From Dehalococcoidia bacterium (GTDB lineage: Bacteria > Chloroflexota > Dehalococcoidia > Dehalococcoidales > JAUXAP01): DNA of 64,000 nt. A model generated the notes under the pieces. It searched no databases and was not told the origin of the DNA. It was given only the letters and a program-made list of their open reading frames with translations. Below, one piece after another: positions 4,675 through 60,066 of the stretch. Where the stretch lies: positions 135 through 64,134 of the forward strand of contig JAUXAP010000003.1 in NCBI GenBank assembly GCA_030619865.1, given 5' to 3'. Every line of letters begins with the position of its first letter. Position 1 is the first letter of the stretch. Position numbers and translations under genes: made by a program.

Positions 4675-4834
4675 TTTCCCACAACCCATTTTTTTGTTAT
4701 ACTCATTTGCGTATAGTATAAAGGCAGGTTTTTTAGTCGTGTGGGCATGTTTTCGCCATAACATAGACAGAATTACGCAAATTTCTGCCATTCTGGCTTC
4801 AATTTTTATGCGTCAATGCGGAGGGTATTGACAG

Positions 4835-6045: not shown

Positions 6046-6070
6046 AGTAATTACTTTCCACATAAACCGA

Positions 6071-6100
6071 AGGTCACTGGTTCGAAGCCAGTCTCCACTA
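6071..6100 (+). other. tRNA/tmRNA 3'-end-like fragment (candidate distal att remnant)
   Basis: ACTGG TTCGAAG CCAGT CTCCACTA: T-arm plus acceptor-like strand, no 5' half upstream. Shares GTCTCCAC with the ssrA terminus. Confidence 0.35.
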
Positions 6101-6111
6101 CCCTGATTTGA

Positions 6112-10417: not shown

Positions 10418-11062
10418 ATGAGCAATGAGATTCTCGAGAGCCTAAAGAAAGCAGTAATAGAATACAATAACGAAGCAGCCACAAGGTGGGCTAGAAAGGC
10501 AGTTGAGGAAGGAGTAGACCCTATTAAGGCAGTAGATGCCCTGACCAAGGGTATCAGGCAAGTCGGTGACGGCTTTAGTCAAGGTGAGCTCTGGCTACCT
10601 GAGCTTGTTGGGGCTGCGGATGCCATGAAGAGTGCTATGCCCATTATAGAAGAAGAGATTAAAAGAAGGGGCAAGAAACGAGAAACAGCGGGTGTCATTG
10701 TGTTAGGAACGGTTAAAGGGGACATCCATGACATAGGCAAAAATCTGGTAGCTACGTTTCTGACCATTGATGGCTTCAACGTAATCGACCTTGGTGTTGA
10801 TGTTGCCGCCGAGAAGTTTATCAAGGCAGTCAAAAAGCATAAAGCTGACATTTTAGCTCTATCTGCCCTCATGACCATGACTGGCCAAGAGCAGAGAAAG
10901 ACGATTGATGCCCTTAAGAAGGAAGGTATAAAAGACAAAGTGAAGGTAATGATAGGTGGAGGAGCTATAACCCAAGGGTTTGCTGACGATATTGGAGCCG
11001 ATGCATATGACCCTACTGCCGTTGGGGCAGTAAAATTAGCCAGAAGGCTGACTAGAAAGTAA
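10418..11062 (+). CDS. cobalamin-binding corrinoid protein (methyltransferase cognate)
   Basis: 214 aa. B12-binding DxHxxG motif as GDIHDIGKNLV, followed by SALMT and GGG segments. Confidence 0.85.
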   Translation: MSNEILESLKKAVIEYNNEAATRWARKAVEEGVDPIKAVDALTKGIRQVGDGFSQGELWLPELVGAADAMKSAMPIIEEEIKRRGKKRETAGVIVLGTVKGDIHDIGKNLVATFLTIDGFNVIDLGVDVAAEKFIKAVKKHKADILALSALMTMTGQEQRKTIDALKKEGIKDKVKVMIGGGAITQGFADDIGADAYDPTAVGAVKLARRLTRK

Positions 11063-11076
11063 AAGGAGGCAATGCC

Positions 11077-12513
11077 ATGGGATTAAAAGGCTATGTAGTT
11101 AAACGCCCACTGGATATATTAACCGAGGAGGAAGTTAAGAGGATTCATTATGGGACTCTGGAGGTCATGGCGAAAACAGGAGTGGTGTTTCATCACAAAA
11201 AGGCGCTAGAGATTTTGGGTGATGCCGGTTGCGATGTGGATAGGGAGAAAGAACTGGTAAGGTTCCCCAACTATTTGGTTGAGGAATCGTTAAGAAAATG
11301 CCCCAGAAGAGTCCTTCTGAAAGGAATGACCCCGGAATATGATGTAGCAGTCGGTGACCCTTATGTGCATTTTGCCAGTTGTATTGCTATGGATACCCTG
11401 GATTTAGAGACTATGGACCGGAAGATACCAACGATGCAAGACCACATTAACATGGCCAAGGTTCTAGACTATTTAGATGAAGTTCATTTGCATTATGGAC
11501 AATATGTGCGTGCAGAAGGTGTTGCTGATATGTGTATACACCCACAGAGGTTCAATATAACAGTTAAACACGCATTGAAGCCCTCCATCACGGCCGGAGT
11601 GTTTGGCAACGAGGTATGGTTGATAAAAATGGCACAAGTCGTTGGTCAAAATCCGGCAGGGCACGCCCAGTGCTCGCCTCCACTGACATGGTCTACAGAC
11701 AAAATCGACTGTATGCTTCATTATATAGACGCCGGCTTCCCTATATTGCCGGGTACAGGTCTGGCAACAGGAATGACCAGTCCGGTGACTCTAGCCGGGG
11801 CATTAGTACAACAACAAGCCGAAATTTTATCTGGGATAGTCCTAGCCCAAACCGTCAAACCCGGGATTGGTGTCATCGTTAAAGGCCGCATAGAGCCAGC
11901 AGATATGAGAACCGGTATGATTGCTGAGGGTGGTGTGGAAAAGGTAATTGCCGATGCCGCCTGGAATCAAATCTGGCGCTGGTACCAAGTCCCCCGATGG
12001 CATACAGTTGTATCGACTGACTCAAAAGTCCCCGATTATCAATGTGGAATGGAAAAAGCACTACATTTCCTCTTGTCGGCTTTGACTGGCTCCAACATAA
12101 TTGCCGGCATTGGCGGAGTATATGATGAAATTACTGTTTCCCCCGTTGTTGCCATAATGGATAACGAACTAGCTCGCCGGATTGGCAAAATGATCGACGG
12201 GGTAAATGTAAACGAGGAAACTTTGGCCGTCGATTTGATTAACAAAGTAGGTCCGATCCCAGGTCAATTTCTCAGCACAGAACACACCAGGAAATTGTGG
12301 AAGTCGGAGCTGCTCATACCTGCTCTTGCTGATAGAATGGGCTATTCTGAATGGGTGGGGGGAGGCAAAAAAACTTCCCTTGATTATGCCAAGGAAAAAT
12401 ACGAGGAGATAATAGCTACCTATAATCCTTCCCCTTTGTCCGAAGATAAAGAGAAGGCAATAGACGAGATTATGGAAGAAGCCAGAAAGTTCTATAAGAG
12501 TAAAGAGTCGTAA
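11077..12513 (+). CDS. MttB-superfamily methyltransferase without pyrrolysine codon
   Basis: 478-aa uninterrupted ORF with trimethylamine-methyltransferase-family length and sequence character. Sits directly downstream of the corrinoid protein. Confidence 0.75.
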   Translation: MGLKGYVVKRPLDILTEEEVKRIHYGTLEVMAKTGVVFHHKKALEILGDAGCDVDREKELVRFPNYLVEESLRKCPRRVLLKGMTPEYDVAVGDPYVHFASCIAMDTLDLETMDRKIPTMQDHINMAKVLDYLDEVHLHYGQYVRAEGVADMCIHPQRFNITVKHALKPSITAGVFGNEVWLIKMAQVVGQNPAGHAQCSPPLTWSTDKIDCMLHYIDAGFPILPGTGLATGMTSPVTLAGALVQQQAEILSGIVLAQTVKPGIGVIVKGRIEPADMRTGMIAEGGVEKVIADAAWNQIWRWYQVPRWHTVVSTDSKVPDYQCGMEKALHFLLSALTGSNIIAGIGGVYDEITVSPVVAIMDNELARRIGKMIDGVNVNEETLAVDLINKVGPIPGQFLSTEHTRKLWKSELLIPALADRMGYSEWVGGGKKTSLDYAKEKYEEIIATYNPSPLSEDKEKAIDEIMEEARKFYKSKES

Positions 12514-47696: not shown

Positions 47697-47841
47697 CCCT
47701 CTGTCCGAGAGGATAGCGTATATATCAAAAGGCTATGATAGGTAAGAATCTGTGATTATGGTAGAAAAATACTCTATTCACACACAAAAATAGACTCCTT
47801 ATTTGACACCCTCTATTACTAACAGCTACAATATTTTCTGT

Positions 47842-47901
47842 GCCGAAGTAGCTCAGTTGGTAGAGCAGTAGACTGAAAATCGGCGTGTCCCCAGTTTGAT
47901 T
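47842..47901 (+). pseudogene. truncated, degenerate copy of tRNA-Phe (first ~60 nt) with its own promoter copy
   Basis: GCCGAAGTAGCTCAGTTGGTAGAGCAGTAGACTGAAAATCGGCGTGTCCCCAGTTTGATT aligns to tRNA-Phe 48754-48813 with 6 mismatches and lacks the 3' T-stem and acceptor. The upstream TTGACA-18-TACAAT (47803-47832) parallels 48716-48744. Confidence 0.8.
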
Positions 47902-47911: not shown

Positions 47912-48664
47912 ATGGAACTAGACGTAATTTTGACCCACCAATCGCTCCCCAAGAATTTCGAAGGTGCCGTCTGTGCCGTGGTTGACGTTCTTCGTGCTAC
48001 CACTACCATAATAACGGCATTAGCCAATGGCGCCAGTGAGGTACAACCATGCATTGATGCCGAGGAGGCCAGGCAGAAAGCAAGAGGTACAAGCGATAAA
48101 CCATTCTTGCTTGGTGGTGAAATAAAAGGGTTGCGTGTACCCGGATTTGACCTAGGAAATTCTCCCGTCGAATACCTTGATTCGAGTCTTATTTCAGGCA
48201 AGGTAATTTACTTTTCGACAACTAATGGCACCTCAGCTATTCGCAGAGCTTATATCGGTAGTCATAATCCCGTATATATAGCCGCACTGGTCAATTTGTC
48301 TGCGGTATCATCGGCACTGCTCAAGGCAACTACTGATAATTCAGCCAGTACAATTCTTCTTCTATGCGCCGGGCGTCGCGGAGGACCGTCATTAGAAGAC
48401 CTCTTCTGTAATGGATTAATTCTGCAGAAATTAATACAGGAACTAAATCAAGCTGGTATCCCCCATAAATTACATGACGGCGCTGCAATAGCTATGGAAT
48501 TCTCGTCACTGAAAAAAGGGCAACCACTGGACGTGCTTAAGGCAACTGAACCCGGCCAGGGTTTACAAGAGCTGGGTTTCGCTGATGATTTAGAACTTGC
48601 CAGTCAAATAGATAAGTATCAAACTGTTCCTATCTTTGATGGCACAAAAATAACAGCCGCATAA
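47912..48664 (+). CDS. comB: 2-phosphosulfolactate phosphatase family protein
   Basis: 250 aa. VVDVLRATTTIITALANGA motif. Confidence 0.75.
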   Translation: MELDVILTHQSLPKNFEGAVCAVVDVLRATTTIITALANGASEVQPCIDAEEARQKARGTSDKPFLLGGEIKGLRVPGFDLGNSPVEYLDSSLISGKVIYFSTTNGTSAIRRAYIGSHNPVYIAALVNLSAVSSALLKATTDNSASTILLLCAGRRGGPSLEDLFCNGLILQKLIQELNQAGIPHKLHDGAAIAMEFSSLKKGQPLDVLKATEPGQGLQELGFADDLELASQIDKYQTVPIFDGTKITAA

Positions 48665-48753
48665 AAATCACGAATATATTCCACGAAATTTAGCCTTACT
48701 TAAAAACTCAGTTGCTTGACACAAATCTCACTAATAGCTACACTAATTCTTGT

Positions 48754-48829
<76 letters not shown>

Positions 48830-49128: not shown

Positions 49129-50241
49129 ATGACCCCACAACAGTTTCCGCTAATTTCGGTCAAGGGCAAGCCCTTTGAGTGTGGTCGGCAGCACGGTTCC
49201 CAAGCTCGGAAGCAAATACGCCAAAATGTAGACCTTTACTTTGACCTCTGGCAACAACTGTGGGGAGCCAAGCGCCCCCAAGTTTTAGAGCAATGCCAAG
49301 GTTTTATCACTGCCATCGGGGAATATGACGCCGATATCCTGGAGGAGCTGGAAGGGATAGCCAAAGGGGCGGATTTATCCCTCGAGGAAATCATAGCTCT
49401 GAACACCAGATATGAGCTAAGCCGGGTAAGAAGCTCAACTTCTCAGTCGACAAGTGATGGCTGCACCGCTATGGCTGCCCTGCCCCAGGTTACCAAAGAC
49501 GGTCATACCATCATGGGGCAGAACTGGGATTTCAAGCCCAGGTTCTATGAGACGGGCATAATCCTGGAGGTAGAACAAGAAGCCAAGCCGAACCTGATTG
49601 TCCACACCGAAGCCGGCACTATATGCCACAAGGGTATGAATTCAGCAGGGGTGGGGGTATGCCTCAATGGCCTGGCATCAAATTTGGATAGATTCGAGCC
49701 GAGGACGCCCATTCTTATTATGATGCGGGGTATCCTCAATGCAAACAGCTTTGACCAAGCACTAAAGGCAGTCCTTGGTACCAGAGCCACCGTTTCCGCA
49801 AACCTCCTCATCGCCCACCGGGATGGCGAAGCTGTTAACCTGGAGATTATCCCAGAGGATGTAGACTGCCTGTATCCGGATAACGGCATCATTACTCATA
49901 GCAATCACTTTCTGGGCTTCACCAACCGGAAAGACTTGATAGATATCGTCAAGTCATCTTCCCCCGATACCCTATTCCGTGCCAACCGGGCACGACAACT
50001 TCTAGAGTTGGACCGTGGTCACATTGATGTTGGCAGCTTCCAGCGGGTGTTTAAGGACCACTTCAGCTATCCAAATTCCATTTGCCGTCATGTAGATGTT
50101 CAGAGAAAGGAACCACAGCAGGGAGCTACTTTGGCCTCAGCAATAATAGACATGACGGAGCAAACCTTCTATTTCACTAAGGGTCCTCCCTGCCAGAATG
50201 AGTACTACAAGCTGCTGCCGCCGTGCCTGCTCAAAGACTGA
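49129..50241 (+). CDS. peptidase C45 / acyl-CoA:6-APA acyltransferase-like Ntn hydrolase
   Basis: 370 aa. Self-processing-type DGCTAMAAL motif and family-typical length. Confidence 0.7.
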   Translation: MTPQQFPLISVKGKPFECGRQHGSQARKQIRQNVDLYFDLWQQLWGAKRPQVLEQCQGFITAIGEYDADILEELEGIAKGADLSLEEIIALNTRYELSRVRSSTSQSTSDGCTAMAALPQVTKDGHTIMGQNWDFKPRFYETGIILEVEQEAKPNLIVHTEAGTICHKGMNSAGVGVCLNGLASNLDRFEPRTPILIMMRGILNANSFDQALKAVLGTRATVSANLLIAHRDGEAVNLEIIPEDVDCLYPDNGIITHSNHFLGFTNRKDLIDIVKSSSPDTLFRANRARQLLELDRGHIDVGSFQRVFKDHFSYPNSICRHVDVQRKEPQQGATLASAIIDMTEQTFYFTKGPPCQNEYYKLLPPCLLKD

Positions 50242-50305: not shown

Positions 50306-50381
50306 TTCCTCGGTAGCTCAATGGTAGAGCGGGCGGCTGTTAACCGCTAGGTTGTAGGTTCGAGCCCTACCCGGGGAGCCA
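50306..50381 (+). tRNA. tRNA-Asn(GUU)-like with 8-nt anticodon loop CTGTTTAA
   Basis: All four arms are canonical and CCA is encoded, but the stem GGCGG/CCGCT encloses 8 nt. The gene is 76 nt where this architecture predicts 75. Confidence 0.8.
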
Positions 50382-50404
50382 GTTCTTTATAACTAGAGAG
50401 CTAA

Positions 50405-50974
50405 ATGAGAAAACGAAAGCTTTCGGTGTCAAGTGAACGTAGCGTTTATACCTATGGTTATCTTCGCAGCGCCGCTGATTTTACGCTAGAGCAGGCAGAA
50501 GAAACCGAAGATGGCAGTTTCCTCAACTGTATGGCCTCTATAATACTCTCGGCGTTCTGTATTGAGGCGTATCTCAACCACATTGGTAGCGAACTCCTTC
50601 CATATTGGGATAAAGAAATTAAGAAAGGACTCAGCGTACATAACAAACTCAAAATCATTTGCCATCATCTTAATTTGGTTCCCGATTACTCACGTGCTCC
50701 ATTCCAATCCTTCAAAAGCATTGTAAAGTACCGAAATCTATTGGCCCACGCAGAAACTGAAAAAATTACAGACCGAGGGACTCAAATAGTTCGTGATGGT
50801 GAGCGAGCGATATACCCCAAAACTTGGTGGGAAAAACACACTAATATCAAGACTGCCAAGCAATGGCTAGCCCATACCGAGTCCATAATTACTCAAATCC
50901 ATGGGGCTGCGGGGCGAGATATCCCCTTTGGGATACTGTCCGTAGGCGGCCACTTCGGTACGTTAGTCAAGTAA
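50405..50974 (+). CDS. HEPN-domain protein (putative RNase)
   Basis: 189 aa, helical. Rx4H motif in IVKYRNLLAHAE. N-terminal AFCIEAYLNHIG helix. Confidence 0.55.
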   Translation: MRKRKLSVSSERSVYTYGYLRSAADFTLEQAEETEDGSFLNCMASIILSAFCIEAYLNHIGSELLPYWDKEIKKGLSVHNKLKIICHHLNLVPDYSRAPFQSFKSIVKYRNLLAHAETEKITDRGTQIVRDGERAIYPKTWWEKHTNIKTAKQWLAHTESIITQIHGAAGRDIPFGILSVGGHFGTLVK

Positions 50975-50996
50975 TTCAGCTTAGCAGAGTAGCTCT

Positions 50997-51020
50997 CACA
51001 AGCCCCACGCCGCGAAACGG
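50997..51020 (+). repeat. core-motif copy A (degenerate 3' half)
   Basis: CACAAGCCCCACGCCGCGAAACGG, then diverges. Confidence 0.7.
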
Positions 51021-51083
51021 AATCCGCCCAAGTTCTAGGGAGCGCCACACACTGTATAGGTTTGCTGCTACTAACTTCCCCTT

Positions 51084-51449
51084 CTAATGTCTAACAAATG
51101 CTCTGGCTATTCCTTCAATAGTAGCGACACAAATATCTCTAAAGTACCTGATTATAAGCGGGGATGACAGCCTTTCAGCCTCTTTTATGCCTTCTTCGGT
51201 AAGCTGAATACTATCCGATGAAAGTAGCCTTTTCGTTCGGCTGGGCAAACGTCTTTTTATTATCTTCACCCATCCCCCGTCTATCATCCTTTCAACGGCA
51301 GCTAGTTGTGCTCCCCCATCTCCAATGTAAATACCGGAGCTACCTATTAGTTCCCAAGGTGTTATACCATATTGCTGTATTACTTCTTCCTCTTGAAATC
51401 GCCTGTAAAAATGCTTTAGAAGATGCTCAATAGTTTGACTTGCATTCAT
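51084..51449 (-). CDS. hypothetical protein
   Basis: 121-aa ORF. On the minus strand GGTGGTATAAT lies 6 nt before the ATG (leaderless candidate). No family recognised. Confidence 0.5.
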   Translation of the reverse strand: MNASQTIEHLLKHFYRRFQEEEVIQQYGITPWELIGSSGIYIGDGGAQLAAVERMIDGGWVKIIKRRLPSRTKRLLSSDSIQLTEEGIKEAERLSSPLIIRYFRDICVATIEGIARAFVRH

Positions 51450-51484
51450 ACCTTAATTATACCACCAATTAAATGTCTATTGAC

Positions 51485-51515
51485 CACAAACCCCACGCCG
51501 CGAAACGGGGCTTGC
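51485..51515 (+). repeat. core-motif copy B
   Basis: CACAAACCCCACGCCGCGAAACGGGGCTTGC. Confidence 0.8.
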
Positions 51516-51634
51516 TCAGTCTCAGATGAGTGCCATACGCCTCATAAGTGCACCTTCTCACATTTCACTATTGGGCGGAGCTCCACATTGATTGCTTTTA
51601 CCTGTCCTACTTCTTTGATGGCGGGTTGTTTCCT

Positions 51635-51751
51635 CTACCCCCCCGATGGATTACCGGTTCTACTCGGCCAGTTACCACCACCTTTTCCACCGCCTTTACC
51701 ACCGCTTGCGCCTCCACTGCTGCCTTTGCCTCCACTACTACCTTTACTCAT
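51635..51751 (-). CDS. 38-aa glycine-rich peptide MSKGSSGGKGSSGGASGGKGGGKGGGNWPSRTGNPSGG
   Basis: Not in the ORF track (shorter than 60 aa). ATG is preceded by AAAGGAGGTAGCA. A canonical minus-strand promoter lies ~45 nt upstream of the ATG. Confidence 0.45.
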   Translation of the reverse strand: MSKGSSGGKGSSGGASGGKGGGKGGGNWPSRTGNPSGG

Positions 51752-51793
51752 TGCTACCTCCTTTCAATGGCTTATTTCACATCATTACGCATG

Positions 51794-51896
51794 TGGGAGC
51801 TTGAGTTTAGTCCTCTTGTGAGGGCTTGTCAATACATAGATGGGCGATGCTTATCTGGTTTCATCCACAAGCCCCACGCCGTGAACTGGGGCTCGC
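51794..51896 (+). repeat. core-motif copy C with ~70-nt extended homology to copy D
   Basis: Core CACAAGCCCCACGCCGTGAACTGGGGCTCGC at 51866-51896. 51794-51865 aligns with 54430-54500. Confidence 0.8.
51804..51832 (-). promoter_or_regulatory. promoter TTGACA-17-TAAACT (minus strand) for the glycine-rich peptide
   Basis: Minus strand reads TTGACA agccctcacaagaggac TAAACT. Confidence 0.5.
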
Positions 51897-51934
51897 CCCG
51901 AGCTTTCCAGCGCTTACACTCCCTACCAACCCAA

Positions 51935-53140
51935 TTATCTCTGTTTCTGCACTGTCTCCTTCACAAAGTAAAAGCCAAATAAACTCGCAGCGGCCCAACC
52001 TGCCCAGAAAATAAAAGGCAAGCCTAGATTAATACCGGCTAAACTGTTACCCAGGGGAGGAGAAACAATACCACCTACCCGGGAAAAGGTCATAGCCAGC
52101 CCAAGGGCGGTTCCAGCATACATTGCTCCAACTCCCTCTTTCTCCGTAATCATGGTAATAATTACAGCCATAAACCCATCACGAGTGATGTTCGCCATTA
52201 TTACTAAGACCCACAGCATTGCGCCACCAACTACTGATAACAGAGCCACACTAATAGCAGTCACTAGCATAGCTCCAAAAAGAACTACTTTCCTTGAACC
52301 AAGCCTATCAGATAATAAGACCATTGGAATAGCGACCATCATGCTAGCTGAATTGGAGGCAGCTAATGCACCATCAGCACTGGCTGCCGTCCATCCAATC
52401 TCCCGCAGATAGAGTGGTAAGTAACCAATCATTCCTGTACTACAGGCCATTCGACCCAGAAGGATGAGTCCAAGCAACCACACACCTCTAATGCGAACTA
52501 CCCGCGATAGTGCCCGGCGAAACGGTACTGTGCTCACATAACCAGTCGGTGACTCAACCCGACTAGGTTCGCTTCGGGTTAGAAGCCAGAGGACGCTGAT
52601 TCCAATAGATACGGCACCATACAGGAACAAGACATTCCTCCATCCACCAAGTAAAGGTGACAGTATCGTGGCACTAATCATTGCCCCTACCGTAAATCCG
52701 AGTCCCATACCCAGTGATAGGATGCCGTTTGCTAACCCCAGTCGCCGTCCTGGGAACCATATGCCAGCGACCTTGTGAACATTGATAGGCGTACTCGCAT
52801 TCAAAAGGCCAAACAGGAACATGGTTACTGCCAAGCTAGTAAAGTTGTCTGATAACCCCCTCAGGGCACCAGCCAGTCCTGCCAAGAAACAGATTGTGCT
52901 AAGAGTACGTTTCACCCCAAACCGGTCACCCAGTAAACCACCAAGCAAGACAACAAACATACCAGCCAAGGGAATCATCGACCAGACCGTGCCTATCTGG
53001 ACCAGACTCAAGTCCAAATCCTCGGATATCTCCTTGAAGAGGACTGGCATGGACATCATTGGCATGGCGACAACGAATGTATGGGTTAATGCCGCCAAGG
53101 TAAGTATATACCACCTGTAATTTGACCTATTACTTTTCAA
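51935..53140 (-). CDS. MFS transporter
   Basis: 401 aa, about 12 TM helices, with the GGLLGDRFGVKR loop motif. Confidence 0.85.
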   Translation of the reverse strand: MKSNRSNYRWYILTLAALTHTFVVAMPMMSMPVLFKEISEDLDLSLVQIGTVWSMIPLAGMFVVLLGGLLGDRFGVKRTLSTICFLAGLAGALRGLSDNFTSLAVTMFLFGLLNASTPINVHKVAGIWFPGRRLGLANGILSLGMGLGFTVGAMISATILSPLLGGWRNVLFLYGAVSIGISVLWLLTRSEPSRVESPTGYVSTVPFRRALSRVVRIRGVWLLGLILLGRMACSTGMIGYLPLYLREIGWTAASADGALAASNSASMMVAIPMVLLSDRLGSRKVVLFGAMLVTAISVALLSVVGGAMLWVLVIMANITRDGFMAVIITMITEKEGVGAMYAGTALGLAMTFSRVGGIVSPPLGNSLAGINLGLPFIFWAGWAAASLFGFYFVKETVQKQR

Positions 53141-53218
53141 TATTAGTAATGCTCACTGCTGAAAATAATCCTCAGAAATGACAGACGAGGGGTCAGACAA
53201 TATCTCCTTCCCCTAGTG

Positions 53219-53264
53219 AACCGCAGTCACTAGGCTGCAGGTTCGAGTCCTACTCGGGGAGCCA
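53219..53264 (+). other. degenerate tRNA-Asn 3' half (att-like remnant)
   Basis: See the islet entry. One T-stem mismatch and a 6-nt insertion relative to 50342-50381. Confidence 0.6.
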
Positions 53265-53443
53265 ACTACTCTATTTCGGTCCCACTTTCACATTTCGGAT
53301 TGAGCTTGTGGTCTTCGGGCCGTAGGAATTAGGCTGTCTTCGTTCGTCATCTACAACATATTGCTGCTTAGGCTTAGGTATCTTTTGAGTGGTTGTTGAT
53401 GCCTTGGTAAACTAACCCGTGCTCCTACGCAGACCTGGGAATT

Positions 53444-54274
53444 TTACTTGGCTACTATTACGATAACATCATCCACATATACAACAGAATTCTCTGGCGA
53501 TTCAAACCCGATGGTACCGCTTAGCAGAGGTTCACTGTCTGTGTAGTGAAGTATCGGATTACCGTCAATATAAAGCACTATTCTATCTCTCTTGATTTCT
53601 ATCTTAAGGTCAATCCATTGGTTCTCCTGAAGACTCACTCCGCTCTTTGCAAGCAAAGCTTCATCTAAAAGCTTTTTGTTCAGTATTGGCCCTTCCGGTA
53701 CGATATTTAGAAAATACATTCCCAATTCTGCTGTAAGTCTAAAGTTCACCTTAGCTGACTGACTGAATTTGATTCTGGCCTCAAGTGTATAATCCGTCCA
53801 TTCTTGTGGACCGACATCAGCAGAACAAGACCCGACTCCCTGCAAAATGTAATTGCCATCTTCCTGGATGACAGACCAACCTCCCTCAAGATTCCATCCC
53901 GTCGCATCACCATCTTCAAAATCGTCCAAAAATAAGAGTATTGCCTCCATTTTGATAATTTGTGCTTCCACTGCAGCCAGATTATCCTTCGCATCGTTCA
54001 AGTCGCTCTGCAAGGATGAGATTTGACTTTGCGCCGTAGTAAGGTCACTTTCAACTTCTGAGCGGTCATTCTCAATGCTCTCTATCTGCCCCTGTGCCTT
54101 ATCGAGTTCGCCCTGCAAGGACTCTACCTTAGTCTGTAAGGATTCTACCTTGGCCTGTGTAGCATCCTGCTCAGCTAATACAGCATCATACTCTTCTTGA
54201 GGTATGCCACAACTTACCACCAGCAAGGATACTAACAACACCATTGCGCCAAGTAGAAATTGCTTCCTTCTCAT
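53444..54274 (-). CDS. lipoprotein: coiled-coil plus C-terminal DUF1080/LamG-like domain
   Basis: 276 aa. Lipobox LLVVSC, heptad region, C-terminal WSVIQEDGNYILQG...GTIGFES...VYVDDVIV. Confidence 0.7.
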   Translation of the reverse strand: MRRKQFLLGAMVLLVSLLVVSCGIPQEEYDAVLAEQDATQAKVESLQTKVESLQGELDKAQGQIESIENDRSEVESDLTTAQSQISSLQSDLNDAKDNLAAVEAQIIKMEAILLFLDDFEDGDATGWNLEGGWSVIQEDGNYILQGVGSCSADVGPQEWTDYTLEARIKFSQSAKVNFRLTAELGMYFLNIVPEGPILNKKLLDEALLAKSGVSLQENQWIDLKIEIKRDRIVLYIDGNPILHYTDSEPLLSGTIGFESPENSVVYVDDVIVIVAK

Positions 54275-54429
54275 TTTATACCTCCTTCTTGTTTATTGAA
54301 CTAAATAGGGCACCATCAATCGCCTGCCAAATTACCTGACGATTCTAGTACCCTTCCCTTTCATCTAACCTCACCTCCTAAACTAATACTACAGTCTATA
54401 TTCAATTGTTTCAAGGTTATTTTACCTAA

Positions 54430-54529
54430 TGGGATTTGAGTTTAGTTCTCTCCTGGGGGTTTGTCAATACACAAATGGGTAATACTTTTCTGGACTCGCC
54501 CAGGAGTCTCACACCGCGAAACGGGGCTT
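54430..54529 (+). repeat. core-motif copy D with extended homology to copy C
   Basis: Core CAGGAGTCTCACACCGCGAAACGGGGCTT at 54501-54529. Confidence 0.75.
54439..54467 (-). promoter_or_regulatory. promoter TTGACA-17-TAAACT (minus strand) upstream of the lipoprotein gene
   Basis: Minus strand reads TTGACA aacccccaggagagaac TAAACT, about 160 nt before ATG 54274. Confidence 0.45.
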
Positions 54530-54641
54530 TAGTTCCTTCAATTCCTCTTTTGACGGGTCTGAGGCATATGGCAACCTTGACAGCCACCACGGCAGATAGT
54601 AGCATTTCACAAATGGAGATGAAAGGAGGTCCAGAAGAACG

Positions 54642-55082
54642 ATGAAAGCAGATACAAAGACAGAAGCCGAGGTAATGGCGGTTTTGAACCAACTCACTGA
54701 AGCTTATAAAAAGCAGGACTTGGATGGTATCTTGGCTCTCTACACGCCAGACCCTGATGTAGTTACTATCGGTACAGGGGTAGATGAGAAGCGCATCGGA
54801 CTGGCCGAGAGAAAAGTCCAATTAGAACGCGATTTTGCTCAGGTCAAGGAAATATCTGTTCAGATGGGCTGGTACTCGGTATCAGCGGCGGGTTCAGTAG
54901 CGTGGGTGGCATCTGATGTTATCGCCCGAGGTAAGGTCAGCGGGCAAGAAACAAGCGTGCCTATGCGAGCAACCTTTGTGTTGGAGCAGCGCGGGGGCAA
55001 GTGGCTTATCGCACAATCACACACGTCATTACCGGCTGCCGGGCAAAAAGAGGGTGAGTCATTCCCAACAGAGTCGTCGTAG
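54642..55082 (+). CDS. SnoaL-like / NTF2-fold protein (DUF4440-like)
   Basis: 146 aa. VMAVLNQLTEAYKKQDLDGILALYTPD...GGKWLIAQSH. Confidence 0.7.
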   Translation: MKADTKTEAEVMAVLNQLTEAYKKQDLDGILALYTPDPDVVTIGTGVDEKRIGLAERKVQLERDFAQVKEISVQMGWYSVSAAGSVAWVASDVIARGKVSGQETSVPMRATFVLEQRGGKWLIAQSHTSLPAAGQKEGESFPTESS

Positions 55083-55231
55083 CGCAATACGCGTAACTTG
55101 AAAGCCCCAGGACTTACCCTAGAAGCGCCACATCGAGGATCCGGGCTGATATTACTTCTAAGTTGGATACTATATGATACAATAATGTAAGCAGCTATCC
55201 TATGACTACAGCGCCTTACAAGGGGTTTAAT

Positions 55232-56155
55232 ATGAGTGTCATCGTTAAATGTGAGCATCTTACCAAAAGCTACGGGGATTTAATTGCGGTAAACGATGTC
55301 AGTTTCAGGGTGGAGGAAGGGGAGATATTTGGGCTGGTAGGGCCAAACGGAGCGGGCAAGACAACATTGATAGAAATGATTGAAGGTTTAAGGACGCCTG
55401 ATAGTGGCTTGATTAAAGCTCTTGGTCTAGACCCAACCAAACAGGGCGATGAGTTGAAAGAGAGAATAGGGGTATTACTCCAAACCACCTCTATCCAGCC
55501 TGATATAAAGGTTAAAGAGGCACTAAGACTTTTTGCTAGTTTTTATCAGCGTGCCCCCGATAATGCTGAAGAACTGCTCCACACACTCTCCTTAGAGGAC
55601 AAGGCAGATAGCCGCTTCAAGAAGCTCTCTGGAGGACTAAAACAAAGGGTGGCTATAGCCCTGGCTCTGGTGAACGACCCGGAGATACTTTTCCTCGATG
55701 AGCTAACTACCGGGTTAGACCCCCAAGCAAGAAGAAACATGTGGGACCTTGTAGAAACCATGAGGACTCAAGGCAAAACGATCTTCCTCACCACGCACTA
55801 CATGGAAGAAGCTGAGAAACTCTGTGATAGGGTGGGCATTATTGATTACGGAAAAATCATCGCCCTGGACACTCCCAGAAACCTCGTCAATAACCTGAGT
55901 GCTGAGTCCAAGGTAACCTTCAATATAGAGGATAAAGACGTAGCTACCTCAAAATTTGAGTTAGTAGGGGCAGTGAGCCGGGTGGAGAAAGTCGAGGACG
56001 GTATTATCCTGTATACCAGGGACGGGAATGTTACTCTCCAGGAATTGGTCAGGTTGGCAGATAAGCAAAAATTCAGGTTAAGCAACCTGCGTACGGAAAG
56101 CCCGAGTCTGGACGATGTCTTCCTTACTCTTACGGGGAGGGAGATGAGGGAATGA
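55232..56155 (+). CDS. ABC transporter ATP-binding protein (ABC-2/DrrA-like)
   Basis: Walker A GPNGAGKTT, signature LSGGLKQR, Walker B ILFLDE. ATG 55232 follows AAGGGG. Confidence 0.9.
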   Translation: MSVIVKCEHLTKSYGDLIAVNDVSFRVEEGEIFGLVGPNGAGKTTLIEMIEGLRTPDSGLIKALGLDPTKQGDELKERIGVLLQTTSIQPDIKVKEALRLFASFYQRAPDNAEELLHTLSLEDKADSRFKKLSGGLKQRVAIALALVNDPEILFLDELTTGLDPQARRNMWDLVETMRTQGKTIFLTTHYMEEAEKLCDRVGIIDYGKIIALDTPRNLVNNLSAESKVTFNIEDKDVATSKFELVGAVSRVEKVEDGIILYTRDGNVTLQELVRLADKQKFRLSNLRTESPSLDDVFLTLTGREMRE

Positions 56156-56901
56156 AACTTAGAGGTTTGTGGCAGCTTGCCTGGAGCGAGTTCAAGCTAA
56201 ACCTGAGAAACCCGGCTATGGTCTTCTGGTCGATTACTTTTCCCGCACTTTGGATGAGTCTATTCGGAGCAATTGCTAGTGAGCCTATACCTGGTTTCGA
56301 ATATGAGGGACTTAACCTTGCCAATTTCCTTCTCCCCGGAGGCATTGGACTGGTAATTGTCGCCTCGGCTTTCATTGGCACGCCCATCAACCTGACAACC
56401 TACAGGGAGGCCGGTGTGCTCAAGAGATTGCGGGTAACTCCTCTTAGGACTTCAACACTGGCTTTTGGTTTTACTCTCAGTCAGTTTATTTTCATGGTTC
56501 TGGGAATACTGGTCCTTTTTATCATTGGTAAAATCTTCTTCAATGTCCAAGTTCTCGGCTCGTGGGCAGCCTTAATCGGCATGATAGTTTTTGGAATGAT
56601 TACTTTCCTCGCCCTGGGTAGTGCCATCGGTAGTGTGGTTGGGTCGTGGCGTACCGCCGCGGTCGTTACACAGATATTCTTTATACCCATGCTATTCCTC
56701 TCCGACCTGTTTATGCCCATATCTATGTTTCCTGATTGGCTCCAGCCGATATGTAAGGCCCTCCCCCTCACCCCTCTCAATATTTTTTTAAGGGATATTG
56801 TATATGGAGTACCTCTGGAAGGGCTGTGGCAGCTGGGGATAATGGCTGGCTGGCTAGTTTTAGGCAGCATTGTTACCCTGCGGTTCTTCAAGTGGGAGTA
56901 G
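56152..56901 (+). CDS. ABC-2 type transporter permease
   Basis: 249 aa with six TM helices. 4-nt overlap with the ATPase gene. Confidence 0.85.
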   Translation: MKLRGLWQLAWSEFKLNLRNPAMVFWSITFPALWMSLFGAIASEPIPGFEYEGLNLANFLLPGGIGLVIVASAFIGTPINLTTYREAGVLKRLRVTPLRTSTLAFGFTLSQFIFMVLGILVLFIIGKIFFNVQVLGSWAALIGMIVFGMITFLALGSAIGSVVGSWRTAAVVTQIFFIPMLFLSDLFMPISMFPDWLQPICKALPLTPLNIFLRDIVYGVPLEGLWQLGIMAGWLVLGSIVTLRFFKWE

Positions 56902-57164
56902 GCCCCTAAGGCGCAACAAAAGCCTGTTGAAGGTCAGCGCATTCGATTTTATACTACTTATCTTATTAGTCGCCACCACCTAGAGAATAGGAATCTCAAG
57001 GCTAAATGTTCTAGGAAAATGGGAGCATCAGGTTTATAACTTGGCGGTTATGAGCCTAAATATATGAGACACTGACTTAGGTTCAAGGTATCCTGCAAAT
57101 AGTATATAATGGTAAGCGGAGAAATAACCAACTTTTAAACACAACCGTCCAGTAGGAGGAGGCA

Positions 57165-58619
57165 ATGAAAGATAAACAAGAATACCAAGGGTACCGTGGG
57201 GCTGGAGTCCGCTTGAGCGAGCCTCTGGCTCCTGAAGTAATAGATGCCAAGTGGGACTCACGGTCCACTCCTACTCTGTACAGAGGCTTACACATGTTCG
57301 ACAAAGCGCATCTGGTTATGCTGGCGGAAACAGGGATTATTCGGAGAGAAGATACTGCAGTATGCCTGAGCGCCCTTTTGCAGATGGAGGAGGAGGGTCT
57401 AGAACATACTCGGGAAGAGATGCAGAGTGGTATTCATTCGGGAGAGGTCTATTTGGTACGCAAGCTGGGTCTTGAGGTAGGGGGTAGAATCCACGCAGGG
57501 CGGAGCTCTGGAGACCTAATCTGGGTTTCCACCCGCATTAGGATGCGGGAGGATCTCCTGACCGTAATGGATGCACTTAACGCGTATCGGGAGGCTCTGC
57601 TGAACTTAGCAAGAAAGCACACGAGGACTGTTATGCCTTTCTACACCCACGGTCAGCATGCCATGCCCAGCACCCTAGCCCTTTACCTCCACGCCTGGGC
57701 TTGCTCTGCAGAACGAGACTTCGTCAGACTAGACGCAGCATATGCCAATACCAATATAAGCGTCGCTGGGGTCGCAGCCGGAAATGCCTCTCGGTTCCGC
57801 CTCAACCGTGAGCGCACAGCAGAGCTTATGGGGTTTGATTCCGCGTCCACCAACACTAGAGATGCAAGAAACTATGACCATCTGGCAGAGATGGGGAGTG
57901 CCTTGGCGATTCTAAACGGTAACCTCGGGTCATTGGCTGATACGTTAGTATTGTGGTGTGGCCAGGAATACCAACTCGTCCAGATCGCTGACCGATACTG
58001 CGACACGAGCAGTATCTTTGCCCATAAGCGGAATCCCGATAGCGCTGAGTCTGTGCAAGGAGTGAGAAACAAGGTTACGGGTCGGACTGTCACTTCCTAC
58101 ACCATACACGAGCTCGTATCGGTGGCCGAATCCACCTCGAGAGGCCTGAAGATTATGGCAGGGGTAATCAATACTCTGAAGGTGAACAAGGAGCGGATGC
58201 TCGATCTCGTGTCTTCTTTCTGGGCCCAGATTCCGGATCTGGGGGCAGTCCTGGTGCTGGAGAAGGGTCTATCGTGGCGAATGGCACACCAGATCGTCGG
58301 AACGCTGGTACGTTTGTCGGAAGAGGAAGGGAAGGGTCCGGCTGATATCACCCCAGAGATGCTGGATCGCGCAGCCAGGTTGTATGCAAACAAGCCCGTG
58401 AAGCTGAGCGCCGATGTTATCGCCAAAGCCATGGATCCAATAGATTGTGTAAACAACCGATGGGTTACCGGAGCGGCTCGTCCGCAGGAGATGGCAAGGC
58501 AAGTTGGCTGCTCGTTGGACCGTTTAGCCAAGGATGGCAAGAAGTTAGAGGATAGGAGGCACAAGCTGGAAGAGGCTGAACACAAGTTGCGCCAAGCGGT
58601 CAAGGCTATTGCAGGATGA
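57165..58619 (+). CDS. fumarate-lyase-superfamily enzyme (argininosuccinate-lyase-like, divergent signature loop)
   Basis: 484 aa with overall ASL-like layout. The signature region reads TSSIFAHKRNPDSAE instead of the usual GSSxMPxKxNP. Confidence 0.7.
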   Translation: MKDKQEYQGYRGAGVRLSEPLAPEVIDAKWDSRSTPTLYRGLHMFDKAHLVMLAETGIIRREDTAVCLSALLQMEEEGLEHTREEMQSGIHSGEVYLVRKLGLEVGGRIHAGRSSGDLIWVSTRIRMREDLLTVMDALNAYREALLNLARKHTRTVMPFYTHGQHAMPSTLALYLHAWACSAERDFVRLDAAYANTNISVAGVAAGNASRFRLNRERTAELMGFDSASTNTRDARNYDHLAEMGSALAILNGNLGSLADTLVLWCGQEYQLVQIADRYCDTSSIFAHKRNPDSAESVQGVRNKVTGRTVTSYTIHELVSVAESTSRGLKIMAGVINTLKVNKERMLDLVSSFWAQIPDLGAVLVLEKGLSWRMAHQIVGTLVRLSEEEGKGPADITPEMLDRAARLYANKPVKLSADVIAKAMDPIDCVNNRWVTGAARPQEMARQVGCSLDRLAKDGKKLEDRRHKLEEAEHKLRQAVKAIAG

Positions 58620-58695
58620 ATAGCGTTAGGACTCTACGATTTGGTTGCTAGCATGCCATTCCTCTGGCAACTGCAGGTGTCTCCTTATATTGCAT

Positions 58696-58724
58696 TTGAC
58701 ACAGCACGCGTTGGCAGTTAAACT
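58696..58724 (+). promoter_or_regulatory. promoter TTGACA-17-TAAACT with ~120-nt leader before the cold-shock gene
   Basis: Exact -35 and 17-nt spacer. The leader contains the hairpin CCACAA...TTGTGG. Confidence 0.45.
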
Positions 58725-58847
58725 TATATAATAGAAAAAAATAGCTGGCTTTCAGTTTAAACAAAAATCATTTATTTAGAGGGTGTGGTTCCACAAGCCT
58801 CTAAAAAGGGTTTTGTGGGATTTCTATTTAAAAGGAGGTGAAGACAC

Positions 58848-59051
58848 TTGAAAGGAAAGATAAAGAGACTTATCCGGGACCGGGGTTTCGGTTTCATCAG
58901 TGCCGAAAATGAAGCTGAGGTCTTCTTCCATCGCACCGCTTTGAAGAGTATAGAGTTTGATACCCTGAACGAGGGCGACGAGGTGGAGTTTGACTTAGAG
59001 AAAGACCGTAGGGGTGACCGAGCAGCGAATGTAACTGTGATAACAGCCTAA
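58848..59051 (+). CDS. cold-shock domain protein
   Basis: 67 aa. RGFGFI RNP1-like motif. TTG start 8 nt after AGGAGGTG. Confidence 0.85.
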   Translation: MKGKIKRLIRDRGFGFISAENEAEVFFHRTALKSIEFDTLNEGDEVEFDLEKDRRGDRAANVTVITA

Positions 59052-59074
59052 AGAAAAGAGACAACATAGTAATA

Positions 59075-59314
59075 GTGACGTCACCAACAGCAGAGAGGAT
59101 CAGTAAAGATCTGCAAGCTGCGGCGACAGAGCCTGAAGTAACCATTAGACTTACTCCCTCCCCTTCGATGTCAAATCGGATAGAGATGGTATTGGACAAG
59201 GAAAAAGAAGGAGAGCAAGTAGTGGAAAGCGAGCGGGTAAAGATATTATTACTTGGCCCCGAAATAGCCAAAGCGCTGGGGGGAATGGTTATTGATTACG
59301 AGCAAATGCCCTAA
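59075..59314 (+). CDS. hypothetical protein, HesB/IscA-like layout without cysteines
   Basis: 79 aa with a GTG start. C-terminal LGGMVIDY resembles the IscA-fold tail. No Cys present. Confidence 0.4.
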   Translation: MTSPTAERISKDLQAAATEPEVTIRLTPSPSMSNRIEMVLDKEKEGEQVVESERVKILLLGPEIAKALGGMVIDYEQMP

Positions 59315-59490
59315 GGAGGAAGGTTCACCATATCGAAGCTTGCTCCTGGTACATAATGCTAAAGTAATTCCCGAATTTTCAGCAGAGATGTAGCTGCATT
59401 CAACTTCAATGAAACTTCTGTTAGTTAATCTACGTGCCGGATTTTCCCCATGCAGGGAGCCAGTTTTTAATATCCCAATGAATAATGTAG

Positions 59491-59970
59491 CTATCTCTTT
59501 CGGATAGGGAATCTGATTTCGGTGACTGGCTCTTCACCCGCTATTGTGGGATCATTATAATACAACTCCTCTACGGGACCGTTTACTTCATAATCGTTGG
59601 TTGCGATCCAAGTATTGAGAGCGACATAAATAGGCTCAATATTCTCATACGGACCTTTGTATATAGTAGTGGCCATCTTAACAGCATCTGATTTCTTTAC
59701 CCCAAGACCTTCTACGTCTGGCCCTACTTCAGCTATATCACCAGAGAGCTGACTCCTGAGTTCCCACCTTAGCTGTTCGTCTGGAACCTCCCCTGGTATA
59801 TTGTAGTATACAGCAATAGATGGCCCAATAGGTTTATAACCTTTCTGGGTAATCCAGCCGTATAACTTTTGAAAGGTCATCGGAATCTGGCTAAAATCAC
59901 CTTTTACACTAATAAAGGCAACCGTCACCGGATTGATATCTTTTATCTTTACGTCAATTGAAGAATTCAT
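59491..59970 (-). CDS. GyrI-like small-molecule-binding domain protein
   Basis: 159 aa. Duplicated beta-alpha-beta-beta pattern (VAFISVKGDFSQIPMTFQKLYGWI...YKGPYENIEPIYVALNTWI). Confidence 0.7.
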   Translation of the reverse strand: MNSSIDVKIKDINPVTVAFISVKGDFSQIPMTFQKLYGWITQKGYKPIGPSIAVYYNIPGEVPDEQLRWELRSQLSGDIAEVGPDVEGLGVKKSDAVKMATTIYKGPYENIEPIYVALNTWIATNDYEVNGPVEELYYNDPTIAGEEPVTEIRFPIRKR

Positions 59971-60035
59971 GCTAACCTCCTTTATGATGTGTCGGGTATA
60001 CGCCCATAGTATACCACCTTAACCCTAGCTTACCC

Positions 60036-60066
60036 CACAAGTCCCACGCCGTGAAATAGGGCTTGC
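60036..60066 (+). repeat. core-motif copy E
   Basis: CACAAGTCCCACGCCGTGAAATAGGGCTTGC. Confidence 0.8.

Follow-up and report, generated by a model that had tools for sequence, protein, structure and literature searches.

Several kinds of bacterial and phage sequences resemble the one described here. CALINs are clusters of attC sites without an integrase. Islands can also accrete at tRNA genes, with tandem islands lying between copies of tRNA or tmRNA 3' ends, as in the ssrA islands of Dehalococcoides. BOX elements (Streptococcus pneumoniae), ERIC and RUP are intergenic, non-coding and modular repeats, numerous within a lineage and able to affect the genes beside them. The Correia/NEMIS elements of Neisseria and the PeSLs of T4-type phages are short repeats with outward promoters flanking small variable genes, and PeSLs are thought to shuffle cassettes through recombination between repeats. 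The motif studied here is the conserved core of a hitherto undescribed family of non-coding, modular DNA repeats widespread in uncultured Dehalococcoidia. We tentatively favour the explanation that this repeat is a DNA-level recombination junction delimiting gene cassettes.

The repeat family and its copies in the window

The full repeat is about 135–250 bp long and consists of a core with an optional arm on either side. The left arm (~70–100 bp) ends in an outward sigma-70-type promoter (TTGACA-17-TAAACT), the core (~35 bp) has the sequence CCCCAC[A/G]AG-CCCCACGCCGCGAAACGGGGCT-YGCC, with a weak 6-bp dyad, and the right arm (~110 bp) contains two further conserved blocks (B2 and B3), the last of which repeats the core imperfectly and in direct orientation. 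A pattern scan identified 14 loci in genomes, nine of them in Dehalococcoidia MAGs, and at least 120 contigs in metagenomes; among the matches listed, a profile search found 191 copies in 134 loci on public contigs, almost all from Dehalococcoidia. Similarity does not reach beyond about −100 and +240 relative to the core and, in 66 copies not selected with the pattern, takes the form of three blocks at least 85% conserved with variable spacers between them.

The window, by which we mean the whole 64-kb stretch of DNA analysed, contains five copies (A to E) of the motif, all on the plus strand, at 50997, 51485, 51866, 54501 and 60036, and none elsewhere. These copies had been picked out in a sequence-only reading, and they were borne out by pattern, profile and shuffles: a degenerate pattern matched four of the five with 0 mismatches and elsewhere in the 64 kb gave a single unrelated match, with three mismatches; five matches were reached in 0/100 shuffles, the result for the 28-mer being the same (0/100); and a whole-element profile search of the window returned only these five copies, again all on the plus strand. 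The motif is, as had been proposed, a genuine shared element, conserved in sequence, and repeat comparison and the profile showed its copies in the window to be longer than 28 nt. The array begins after a tRNA-Asn gene, in a region with the following features:

50307–50381, plus strand: tRNA-Asn (GTT), last gene of a Phe-Gly-Leu-Gln-Asn cluster and anchor of the variable region
50382–59454, no strand: 9.07 kb absent in the related locus L072, holding copies A–D and the cassettes they separate
50997–51050, plus strand: copy A (profile positions 106–159, E = 1.8e-5)
51084–51449, minus strand: 121-aa orphan ORF, the cassette between copies A and B
51484–51611, plus strand: copy B (profile E = 1.2e-27; alignments)
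51635–51751, minus strand: 38-aa Gly-rich peptide gene, a cassette with the right arm of B on one side and the left arm of C on the other
51801–51897, plus strand: copy C (repeat comparison with D, promoter scan, profile)
51804–51832, minus strand: sigma-70-like promoter TTGACA-17-TAAACT in the left arm of C, facing the Gly-rich peptide gene
51898–53265, no strand: MFS-transporter block, placed between 59462 and 59455 in L139 and L140
53230–53264, plus strand: 35-nt copy of the tRNA-Asn 3' end (89%), an att-type direct repeat at the right edge of the MFS block
54436–54532, plus strand: copy D (repeat comparison with C, promoter scan, profile)
54439–54467, minus strand: sigma-70-like promoter TTGACA-17-TAAACT in the left arm of D, facing the DUF1080-like lipoprotein gene
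59446–59463, plus strand: tRNA-Asn 3'-end remnant (~18 nt), marking the junction with the GyrI-like cassette
59491–59970, minus strand: GyrI-like gene, a cassette whose left-hand contexts differ in L072, L034, L123/L047, L139 and L141
60017–60123, plus strand: copy E (profile E = 1.4e-17)

Copy A, described earlier as degenerate and facing no gene, indeed lies between two convergent ORFs and is internally deleted, its core being cut at the 3' half and followed by a remnant of the distal right arm. Copy B has a core (51491–51512) and a full right arm with both B2 and B3, and separates the 3' end of the Gly-rich peptide gene from the start of the 121-aa ORF. Copies C and D each combine a left-arm promoter module of about 65 nt with a core (51801–51865 and 51866–51897, respectively, in C), and the homology of about 100 nt attributed to them measured 93 nt at 75% identity; D occupies the intergenic region from which the DUF1080-like gene and a SnoaL-like gene diverge. 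Copy E, a core with a diverged right arm between the GyrI-like and pyruvate kinase genes, is orthologous in L072, L139, L140, L034 and L123, but 2/22 of its core positions differ between 97%-identical strains, so at least this copy is under no visible constraint.

Promoters, neighbouring genes and secondary structure

The sequence-only reading took the motif for a shared upstream cis-element of a small regulon of accessory genes; on this view the core, together with B2 and B3, would be the site of a transcription factor or nucleoid protein controlling their promoters. Its observations on the window are accurate: in four of the five cases the copy precedes a minus-strand gene, at distances that recur, TTGACA-17-TAAACT is found 33 nt from the motif in C and D (51832–51804 and 54467–54439, minus strand), and extended −10 boxes lie 22–23 nt from B and E, as measured to the −10 hexamer (GGTGGTATAAT at 51456–51466 and GGTGGTATACT at 60008–60018). 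Conservation in blocks without base-pair covariation is also as in protein-binding DNA, each element contains two related sites about 90 bp apart, the left arm carries a conserved promoter with genes after it, and some right ends overlap plus-strand TTGACA boxes. Nevertheless, although the core may bind a protein, control of adjacent promoters by it seems improbable given that, family-wide, the repeat has no fixed orientation or distance relative to gene starts. A minus-strand gene begins in the 350 nt to the left of only 19/116 copies, 46 of the 75 copies with both flanks available (61%) have no outward-facing gene start on either side, and the genes between neighbouring copies are divided 29 vs 26 by strand; the small regulon with an orientation and promoter-distance rule cannot be upheld in the absence of any such bias. 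All four gene configurations occur around copies, including the convergent one, as at copy A. The co-orientation of neighbouring copies regardless of gene strand has no regulatory rationale, and the centres of the dyad half-sites are separated by 18 bp, a spacing unusual for helix-turn-helix dimers. The 121-aa protein put forward as the regulator is a rare orphan in which no domain was found, with just five homologues among 5.8 billion proteins, and it cannot therefore regulate an element present in hundreds of copies across a class.

We infer that promoter proximity in the window is secondary, the promoter of C and D being the element's own left-arm promoter, whereas B and E adjoin extended −10 promoters of neighbouring genes. 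The C/D promoter is a conserved module present in 12 copies, and in most of those with sufficient flank a Shine-Dalgarno sequence, start codon and ORF come after it. The Gly-rich peptide gene occurs with the same flanks in L058 and L078.

The element varies very little in length (most of 53 copies measure 131 nt), the consensus contains a small hairpin, several copies lie close behind stop codons or tRNA genes, and one predicted stem displays G-U-compatible variation on the plus strand. These features would suit an element that acts as RNA once transcribed, whether as a small RNA, as a 5' leader or as a REP-like 3' hairpin stabilizing or terminating transcripts, but this is very improbable, given that no Watson-Crick covarying column pair was found among 116 distinct copies, the alifold covariation term was positive and the folding energy of the whole element, on either strand, was no better than that of shuffles. 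In addition, an Rfam search gave no match even at E up to 10, no U-tract follows the hairpin, and the strand relation to neighbouring genes is inconsistent. The predicted folding of the core as GCCCC-N12-GGGGC is exact in copy C, but mismatched in B, D and E and without its 3' half in A; single-strand folding yielded a 7-bp hairpin in C only (z = −1.7), the other copies behaving like shuffles. Similarly, the compensatory inverted repeat noted in C and D does exist (CTTGTG/CACAAG in C, CTCCTGGG/CCCAGGAG in D), but it is not general: arm complementarity of at least 6 nt was found in only 2/29 copies with the TTGTCAA module, C and D themselves, and the stem is lost beyond them.

Arrays and breaks in synteny

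More than one copy is present in 44 loci among the matches listed. Adjacent copies, 320–2300 nt apart, are co-oriented in 60/66 pairs, independently of the strand of the intervening genes and of all flanking ORFs (201 vs 193 relative to the element). Copies are intergenic, with one to three genes of either orientation between them in arrays. A favoured array site is the variable region 3' of the tRNA Phe-Gly-Leu-Gln-Asn cluster, where the window array also lies; the window apart, at least 15/120 loci have tRNA-Asn no more than about 2 kb upstream of the element, nearly always pointing in the same direction.

Synteny between related contigs breaks at the core, although most comparisons involve short contigs from metagenomes, in which repeats are just where chimeras can arise. 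An NfeD-like cassette has five different left contexts, joined exactly at the core, the 3' flank of one gene is joined at the core to three different partners, and the neighbours of a given cassette change from contig to contig. L010 has the order core, right arm, gene, left arm, core, and L043 has a single core in its place; every cassette with a left arm at its right edge also has a right arm on its left (6/6 vs 21/47, p = 0.02). In L072, tRNA-Asn directly adjoins the GyrI-like cassette. L139 and L140 are 96–97% identical to the window, yet the MFS block, the left edge of which lies 4 nt past core C, is re-ordered in them.

If the repeat is a recombination junction, the core would act as double-stranded DNA, and recombination between co-oriented cores would delete, excise and re-insert the intervening cassettes, with a tRNA-Asn 3'-end att system also operating in this hot spot. 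The agent may be a putative dedicated sequence-specific recombinase or, failing that, RecA. Several observations count against this explanation, besides the chimera-prone contigs: the arrays have no associated recombinase or transposase, the only ones in the window being 44–50 kb away, beside tmRNA, and the protein families flanking arrays are diverse. In the clearest recent re-ordering, between the window and L139, one edge corresponds to the tRNA-Asn 3'-end repeats and not to a core. Copies within a contig are as diverged as copies between contigs (66% vs 63% identity), so recent core-to-core exchange or homogenization is not evident; the lack of visible constraint on copy E is a further point against the junction. 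Most of the neighbour changes could also be explained without cassette insertion, if homologous recombination between direct repeats had removed different parts of a single large ancestral array.

The repeat may instead be a selfish, non-autonomous MITE- or REP-like mobile element, which we consider unlikely. The core hairpin would be recognized by a trans-acting single-strand transposase (IS200/IS605 or RAYT type), co-oriented clusters would arise through strand-specific insertion and local hopping, and homologous recombination between copies would break synteny only incidentally. Copies do occur in every intergenic context, many are truncated or modular, with one tandem copy (in L031), and the conserved blocks could be parts required for mobilization. 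Moreover, the core-like sequence at the far end of the right arm is a direct, not an inverted, repeat, and the left- and right-end hairpins of IS200/IS605 elements are likewise arranged as direct repeats. However, a search for terminal inverted repeats in the element found none, the hairpin is a weak one, and shuffled sequences fold as stably as the whole element. Nor does the element have a sharp left boundary or an evident conserved target sequence. Within-contig identities of 53–82% indicate no recent bursts, no Y1 transposase was seen in the window, and element and gene orientations are uncorrelated, where some correlation would be expected were element orientation set by replication.

Comparison with described systems

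REP/BIME sequences, which go with RAYT transposases, are also short, GC-rich extragenic dyads, highly conserved in a lineage and often located just after stop codons, but the dyad here is only 6 bp with a 12-nt spacer, copies are direct rather than in inverted pairs, the core is joined to conserved arms of at least 100 bp, and no RAYT was seen. The Correia/NEMIS and PeSL repeats share the outward promoter beside small variable genes. Unlike Correia elements, this repeat has no terminal inverted repeats or TA duplication; unlike in PeSLs, the genes are not co-oriented with the repeat. Its copies are chromosomal and belong to Dehalococcoidia, and no match in phages or plasmids was found. With BOX, ERIC and RUP, it has in common many intergenic, non-coding copies with left, core and right modules in varied combinations; it differs in having no predicted stable secondary structure, in the strong co-orientation of neighbours in local arrays and in the coincidence of copies with synteny breakpoints.

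Integron arrays, including CALINs, similarly have co-oriented repeats of about 60–140 bp at each junction of one-gene cassettes, strain-variable cassette content and order, and can lack an adjacent integrase. This repeat, however, has neither RYYYAAC...GTTRRRY inverse core sites nor a long imperfect hairpin, and is conserved in sequence, not structure; its cassette genes, found on either strand, have promoters of their own, the array is anchored at a tRNA gene, and no integrase of the IntI type was seen. As in tRNA-linked islands, tRNA-Asn 3'-end copies (35 nt and ~18 nt) bound two blocks of the window, the order of blocks varying between 97%-identical strains. These blocks contain no integrase, in contrast to such islands, most internal junctions are formed by the core motif rather than by tRNA fragments, and core-motif arrays also occur far from any tRNA.

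A modular repeat family and its copies in the window

The five motif copies that a sequence-only reading had picked out were recovered by repeat finding in the window as a single family, at 50996, 51484, 51865, 54500 and 60035, all on the plus strand. A degenerate 19-mer matches four of the five with no mismatch and has one other match in the window, unrelated and with 3 mismatches; five matches were reached in none of 100 shuffles, and the 28-mer likewise gave 0 of 100. A profile built from full copies of the element (an optional left arm with an outward promoter, a core of about 35 bp and an optional right arm of about 110 bp) recovers exactly the five known copies in the window and distinguishes their forms.

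Form of each window copy against the profile of full copies
Copy A, 50996, plus strand: internally deleted
Copy B, 51484, plus strand: full right arm
Copy C, 51865, plus strand: left arm and core only
Copy D, 54500, plus strand: left arm and core only
Copy E, 60035, plus strand: right arm diverged

A search covering a single genome for each species found the motif pattern at 14 loci, of which nine are in Dehalococcoidia metagenome-assembled genomes (MAGs); among metagenome contigs it occurs in at least 120, with sediments predominating. The profile gave 191 copies in 134 loci among the matches listed. There was no match to the motif pattern in viral contigs, and none to the consensus in plasmids and phages. 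Full or partial copies also occur in two contigs binned as Deltaproteobacteria and Desulfobacterales (L002 and L013); mis-binning is more likely here than cross-phylum transfer, given that L002 is 83% identical over 179 nt to a Dehalococcoidia contig (L014).

The anatomy of the family is modular. Similarity is limited to about -100 to +240 around the motif, with a conserved stretch of about 110 nt to the right in most loci (copy B has it) and a continuation to the left in about a third. In a set of 66 copies chosen independently of the search pattern, conservation reaches 85% or more in three blocks with variable spacers between them; the second and third (B2 and B3) lie in the right arm.

Conserved blocks of the element
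Block 1: the core
Block 2: GAGT.CCATACGCCTCA
Block 3: TTCCCTAT.GGGCGG.GCGCCACGT.GAGAATC

The core recurs as an imperfect direct repeat where the third block ends, and one locus (L031) carries two element units in tandem. The core with its left flank (GAGCCCCAC-GCCGCGAAA-CGGGGCTTGCC) also looks like the T-arm plus 3' acceptor portion of tRNA-Asn (GAGCCCTAC-CCGGGGAGCCA; tRNA-Asn 50355-50381) with 9-10 nt inserted, a resemblance that could be a coincidence or reflect a derived att-like site.

Promoters, neighbouring genes and folding

The promoter-like sequences described beside the window copies are present: two TTGACA-17-TAAACT sites on the minus strand (51832-51804 and 54467-54439), each 33 nt from the motif (copies C and D), and the extended -10 boxes GGTGGTATAAT (copy B) and GGTGGTATACT (copy E), 22-23 nt away from it. 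Copies C and D are homologous over 93 nt at 75% identity. The left arm contains a promoter module, GAGTTTAGTCC-N-TTGTCAA on the plus strand, which is conserved in 12 copies and, in most of those with enough flank, followed by a gene, so that copies C and D probably do drive their adjoining genes. One of these genes (51635-51751) encodes a 38-aa Gly-rich peptide (MSKGSSGGKGSSGG...NWPSRTGNPSGG) and is preceded by a strong Shine-Dalgarno sequence; two other loci (L058 and L078) conserve the gene along with its promoter and 5' UTR.

From such positions, the motif had been proposed as a shared upstream cis-element defining a small regulon. A fixed orientation and distance relative to promoters fits four of the five window copies but does not extend to the family. 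When gene starts were counted strictly, as a Shine-Dalgarno sequence plus start codon and ORF, a minus-strand start lay within 350 nt leftward of 19 of 116 copies and a plus-strand start to the right of 18 of 92; 46 of the 75 copies with both flanks had neither outward start, and a start on the relevant side accompanies just 16-20% of copies family-wide. All four gene configurations occur, convergent included (on crude ORF calls), and element orientation is independent of gene orientation, with no relation to that of all flanking ORFs (201 vs 193). A site for a transcription factor controlling a regulon was rejected on this variation in orientation and distance to promoters and gene starts across copies, and a protein-binding regulatory site, although compatible with the four window copies, is quite improbable in the light of the same counts. 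The 121-aa protein suggested as the regulator has no domain and only five homologues among 5.8 billion proteins, and the suggestion was not borne out. A distant homologue stands alone in L135 (380-1010; also in L136-L138) with an intact tRNA-Met on one side and 23 nt repeated from the 3' end of that tRNA on the other, just after the 23S rRNA gene, as a single-gene, att-flanked insert with neither an integrase nor a copy of the element.

Folding gave a similar picture. The hairpin GCCCC-N12-GGGGC is perfect in copy C but absent in that form from A, B, D and E; as a single strand, only copy C forms a 7-bp hairpin (z = -1.7), the other four behaving like their shuffles. The inverted repeats described for copies C and D exist in both sequences, but the compensatory stem read from them does not generalize, complementarity of at least 6 nt being found in only these two of 29 module-bearing copies. 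A mutual-information scan of 116 distinct copies detected no Watson-Crick covarying pair, consensus folding gave no compensatory support on either strand, and DNA folding showed no excess stability over shuffles on either strand. Rfam searches of the window and two other loci (L009 and L048), at gathering and permissive thresholds up to E 10, returned tRNAs only, the element being unmatched by any family. A riboswitch, sRNA or ribozyme was rejected on the lack of an Rfam match, of covariation and of alifold compensatory support, and an RNA element in general appears very improbable. Likenesses to a hammerhead, group II intron domain V, attC and CRISPR were each dropped on the consensus; a CRISPR array requires regular spacers of 25-50 nt, whereas the window copies are spaced by 488, 381, 2635 and 5535 nt with genes between them. 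The element is not coding either: none of the frames stays open across the copies, and the indels do not come in threes.

Cassette arrays and the tRNA-Asn hot spot

Among the matches listed in the profile search, 44 loci have more than one copy. Neighbouring copies form co-oriented arrays (60 of 66 pairs, at spacings of 320-2300 nt; the other six are inverted), and the intervening genes are divided between the two strands (29 vs 26). These arrays comprise 2-6 copies over 1-9 kb, the remainder of longer contigs being copy-free. Replication strand was rejected as the cause of co-orientation on the lack of correlation with gene orientation, used as the sole proxy.

Synteny breaks at the core. Several cassettes, the small gene units between copies, recur with changing neighbours, including those for a cold-shock protein, NfeD-like, GyrI-like and 88-aa proteins and a PAP2-like membrane protein. 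The NfeD-like cassette is found in five different left-hand contexts, one of them tRNA-Asn, and homology begins about 7 nt before the motif; the 3' flank of one gene has three different partners across the core. One locus (L010) has the order core, right arm, gene, left arm, core, where another (L043) has a single core. When a left arm stands at the right edge of a cassette, a right arm stands at the left edge in all six cases, as compared with 21 of 47 otherwise (p = 0.02), the outcome expected from the splitting of a contiguous left arm-core-right arm site. The window's Gly-rich gene, between copies B and C, has the same arm layout and recurs with these flanks in L058 and L078. In comparisons of filled and empty sites, every presence/absence difference found involves genes too, and the left boundary of the element is not sharp.

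A hot spot for these arrays lies beside tRNA-Asn. In at least 15 of 120 loci this gene is found upstream of an element and, with few exceptions, points the same way. It usually closes a Phe-(Gly/Ser)-Leu-Gln-Asn cluster, and does so in the window. The tRNA-Asn 3' end (50347-50381) is repeated in the window at 53230-53264 (89%) and 59446-59463. Because the GyrI-like cassette directly abuts tRNA-Asn in the relative L072, the window's 50382-59454 (9.07 kb, with copies A-D) is extra DNA, and it is subdivided by these two tRNA-Asn 3'-end copies. In two contigs 96-97% identical to the window (L139 and L140), the block 51898-53265 (an MFS gene and a tRNA fragment) sits between 59462 and 59455, so the order of the two att-flanked blocks is reversed. 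The block that moved has its left edge 4 nt beyond core C. This shows that re-ordering in the window's variable region is recent, and the swapped order of integrase-less blocks in contigs so similar points to recent site-specific accretion at tRNA-Asn. The comparison further shows tRNA-Asn 3'-end repeats and cores at work as two kinds of junction in one region. A supposed sixth copy at 59441-59470 proved, on comparison with L072 and L139, to be a tRNA-Asn 3'-end remnant.

Other irregularities were seen around tRNA genes. A gene of the acyl-CoA:6-APA acyltransferase family (49129-50241) splits tRNA-Gln from tRNA-Asn in the window, and L072 has the same insertion; the gap is only about 6 nt in eight other loci. 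An 84-nt copy (47818-47901), 87% identical, of the tRNA-Phe upstream region and 5' two-thirds (48730-48813) may be another insertion scar in the cluster, and a 2-phosphosulfolactate-phosphatase-like gene (47912-48664) lies between it and the real tRNA-Phe. In L044, L063 and L112, a core is located about 40-45 nt from a reversed tRNA-Met 3' half that ARAGORN does not call as a gene, followed in L063 by a tyrosine integrase.

No recombinase domain was found among the ORFs of 50382-59454, and recombinases occur in the window only beside the tmRNA gene (0.2-6.5 kb), in a region that looks like an integrated element at ssrA (1-6522); such elements are known in Dehalococcoides.

Features of the tmRNA region
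1-215: tmRNA 3' part, followed by a run of minus-strand genes
193-1773, minus strand: large serine recombinase
2036-2584, minus strand: small resolvase
3350-3985, minus strand: ParB-N protein
3982-4791, minus strand: Mom-family protein
6112-6522, minus strand: truncated tyrosine integrase

Beyond this region, an Rfam match to PYLIS_3 (pyrrolysine insertion sequence; 12013-12112) lies inside an MTTB-family ORF (11077-12513) that is listed as open throughout and adjoins a B12-binding corrinoid protein (region 10418-12513).

A proposed recombination junction and its relation to known systems

The core is quite possibly a DNA-level recombination junction that delimits cassettes, a tentative reading and the one we prefer. 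Recombination at the core would be due to a sequence-specific enzyme rather than to RecA acting on a 35-45 bp repeat, and cassettes would be inserted as well as deleted. Several observations weigh against this: the search for a recombination enzyme gave none; repeats are places where metagenome contigs can be chimeric (the window makes up 64,000 nt of a 65,515-nt MAG-derived NCBI contig); most changes of neighbour are also accounted for if a large ancestral array underwent deletions alone; divergence is as great among copies within one contig as between contigs; and in strains that are 97% identical, copy E shows differences at 2 of 22 core positions.

The Dehalococcoidia, small-genomed bacteria of the subsurface, are abundant but for the most part uncultured, and outside the tmRNA-linked islands of Dehalococcoides little is known of how they exchange accessory genes. 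A broader and rather unlikely proposal is that they possess a cassette-capture platform, integron-like but mechanistically distinct. In this scheme a dedicated recombinase would act in trans on the core (about 35 bp) to excise and insert cassettes that lack an integrase, hold one to three genes facing either way and bring their own promoters; as in res/cer sites, the right arm (about 110 bp) would be an accessory sequence conferring directionality, and the primary landing pad would be immediately downstream of tRNA-Asn. If a dedicated recombinase exists, this would be a second kind of cassette-array system beside integrons. A lineage-wide cassette-boundary repeat would provide a sequence handle on the variable gene pool in metagenomes and draw attention to a probable cause of errors in assembly and binning. 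It is also a caution that a locally convincing "regulon motif" can be a scar of recombination or mobile DNA.

Both the repeat family and the way it forms arrays are new and open to testing; in kind, these are interspersed repeats bounding variable gene cassettes. Literature searches found neither the sequence string nor any description of the element or of integron-like arrays in Dehalococcoidia. Of the mobile elements compared, a classical MITE has terminal inverted repeats, which full copies lack. IS200/IS605 elements carry the same hairpin in direct orientation at both ends, and the direct repeat of a core-like sequence at the right-arm end recalls them, but the hairpins of the element are weak and the 64-kb window has no Y1 transposase. 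REPINs are inverted pairs, whereas the pairs here are direct, with inversion rare. No transposase or integrase family recurs beside the element, its flanks yielding just five tyrosine integrases next to tRNA fragments and one rve-type ORF. A MITE- or REP-like element moved by a single-strand transposase is somewhat unlikely. Islands targeting tRNA genes offer a parallel that applies to the window blocks and not to the motif: tRNA 3'-end direct repeats flank the DNA in both, but such an island carries its integrase inside, and the blocks have no recombinase domain.

Closest in working are attC-bounded cassette arrays and the promoter-stem-loop repeats of T4-type phages. An attC site is bounded by two inverse core sites, R'' (RYYYAAC) on one side and R' (GTTRRRY) on the other, which are missing from the element; its sole GTT-like triplet (GTTGAGA, in block B3) keeps its third base in just 63% of copies and has no inverted partner, and the two core-like sequences of each element are direct repeats. 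Single-stranded attC, an imperfect palindrome, folds as a long hairpin, whereas folding the core together with the right arm on each of the two strands yields z scores from -0.65 to +0.73, with no long-range pairs in the consensus fold. Integrons have an IntI integrase and attI at one end, and no integrase was seen in or adjoining the window array; integron cassette ORFs are mostly co-oriented and promoterless, whereas the genes of these cassettes, lying on both strands, have their own promoters. What the two arrangements share is the placing of co-oriented sites between single-gene cassettes.
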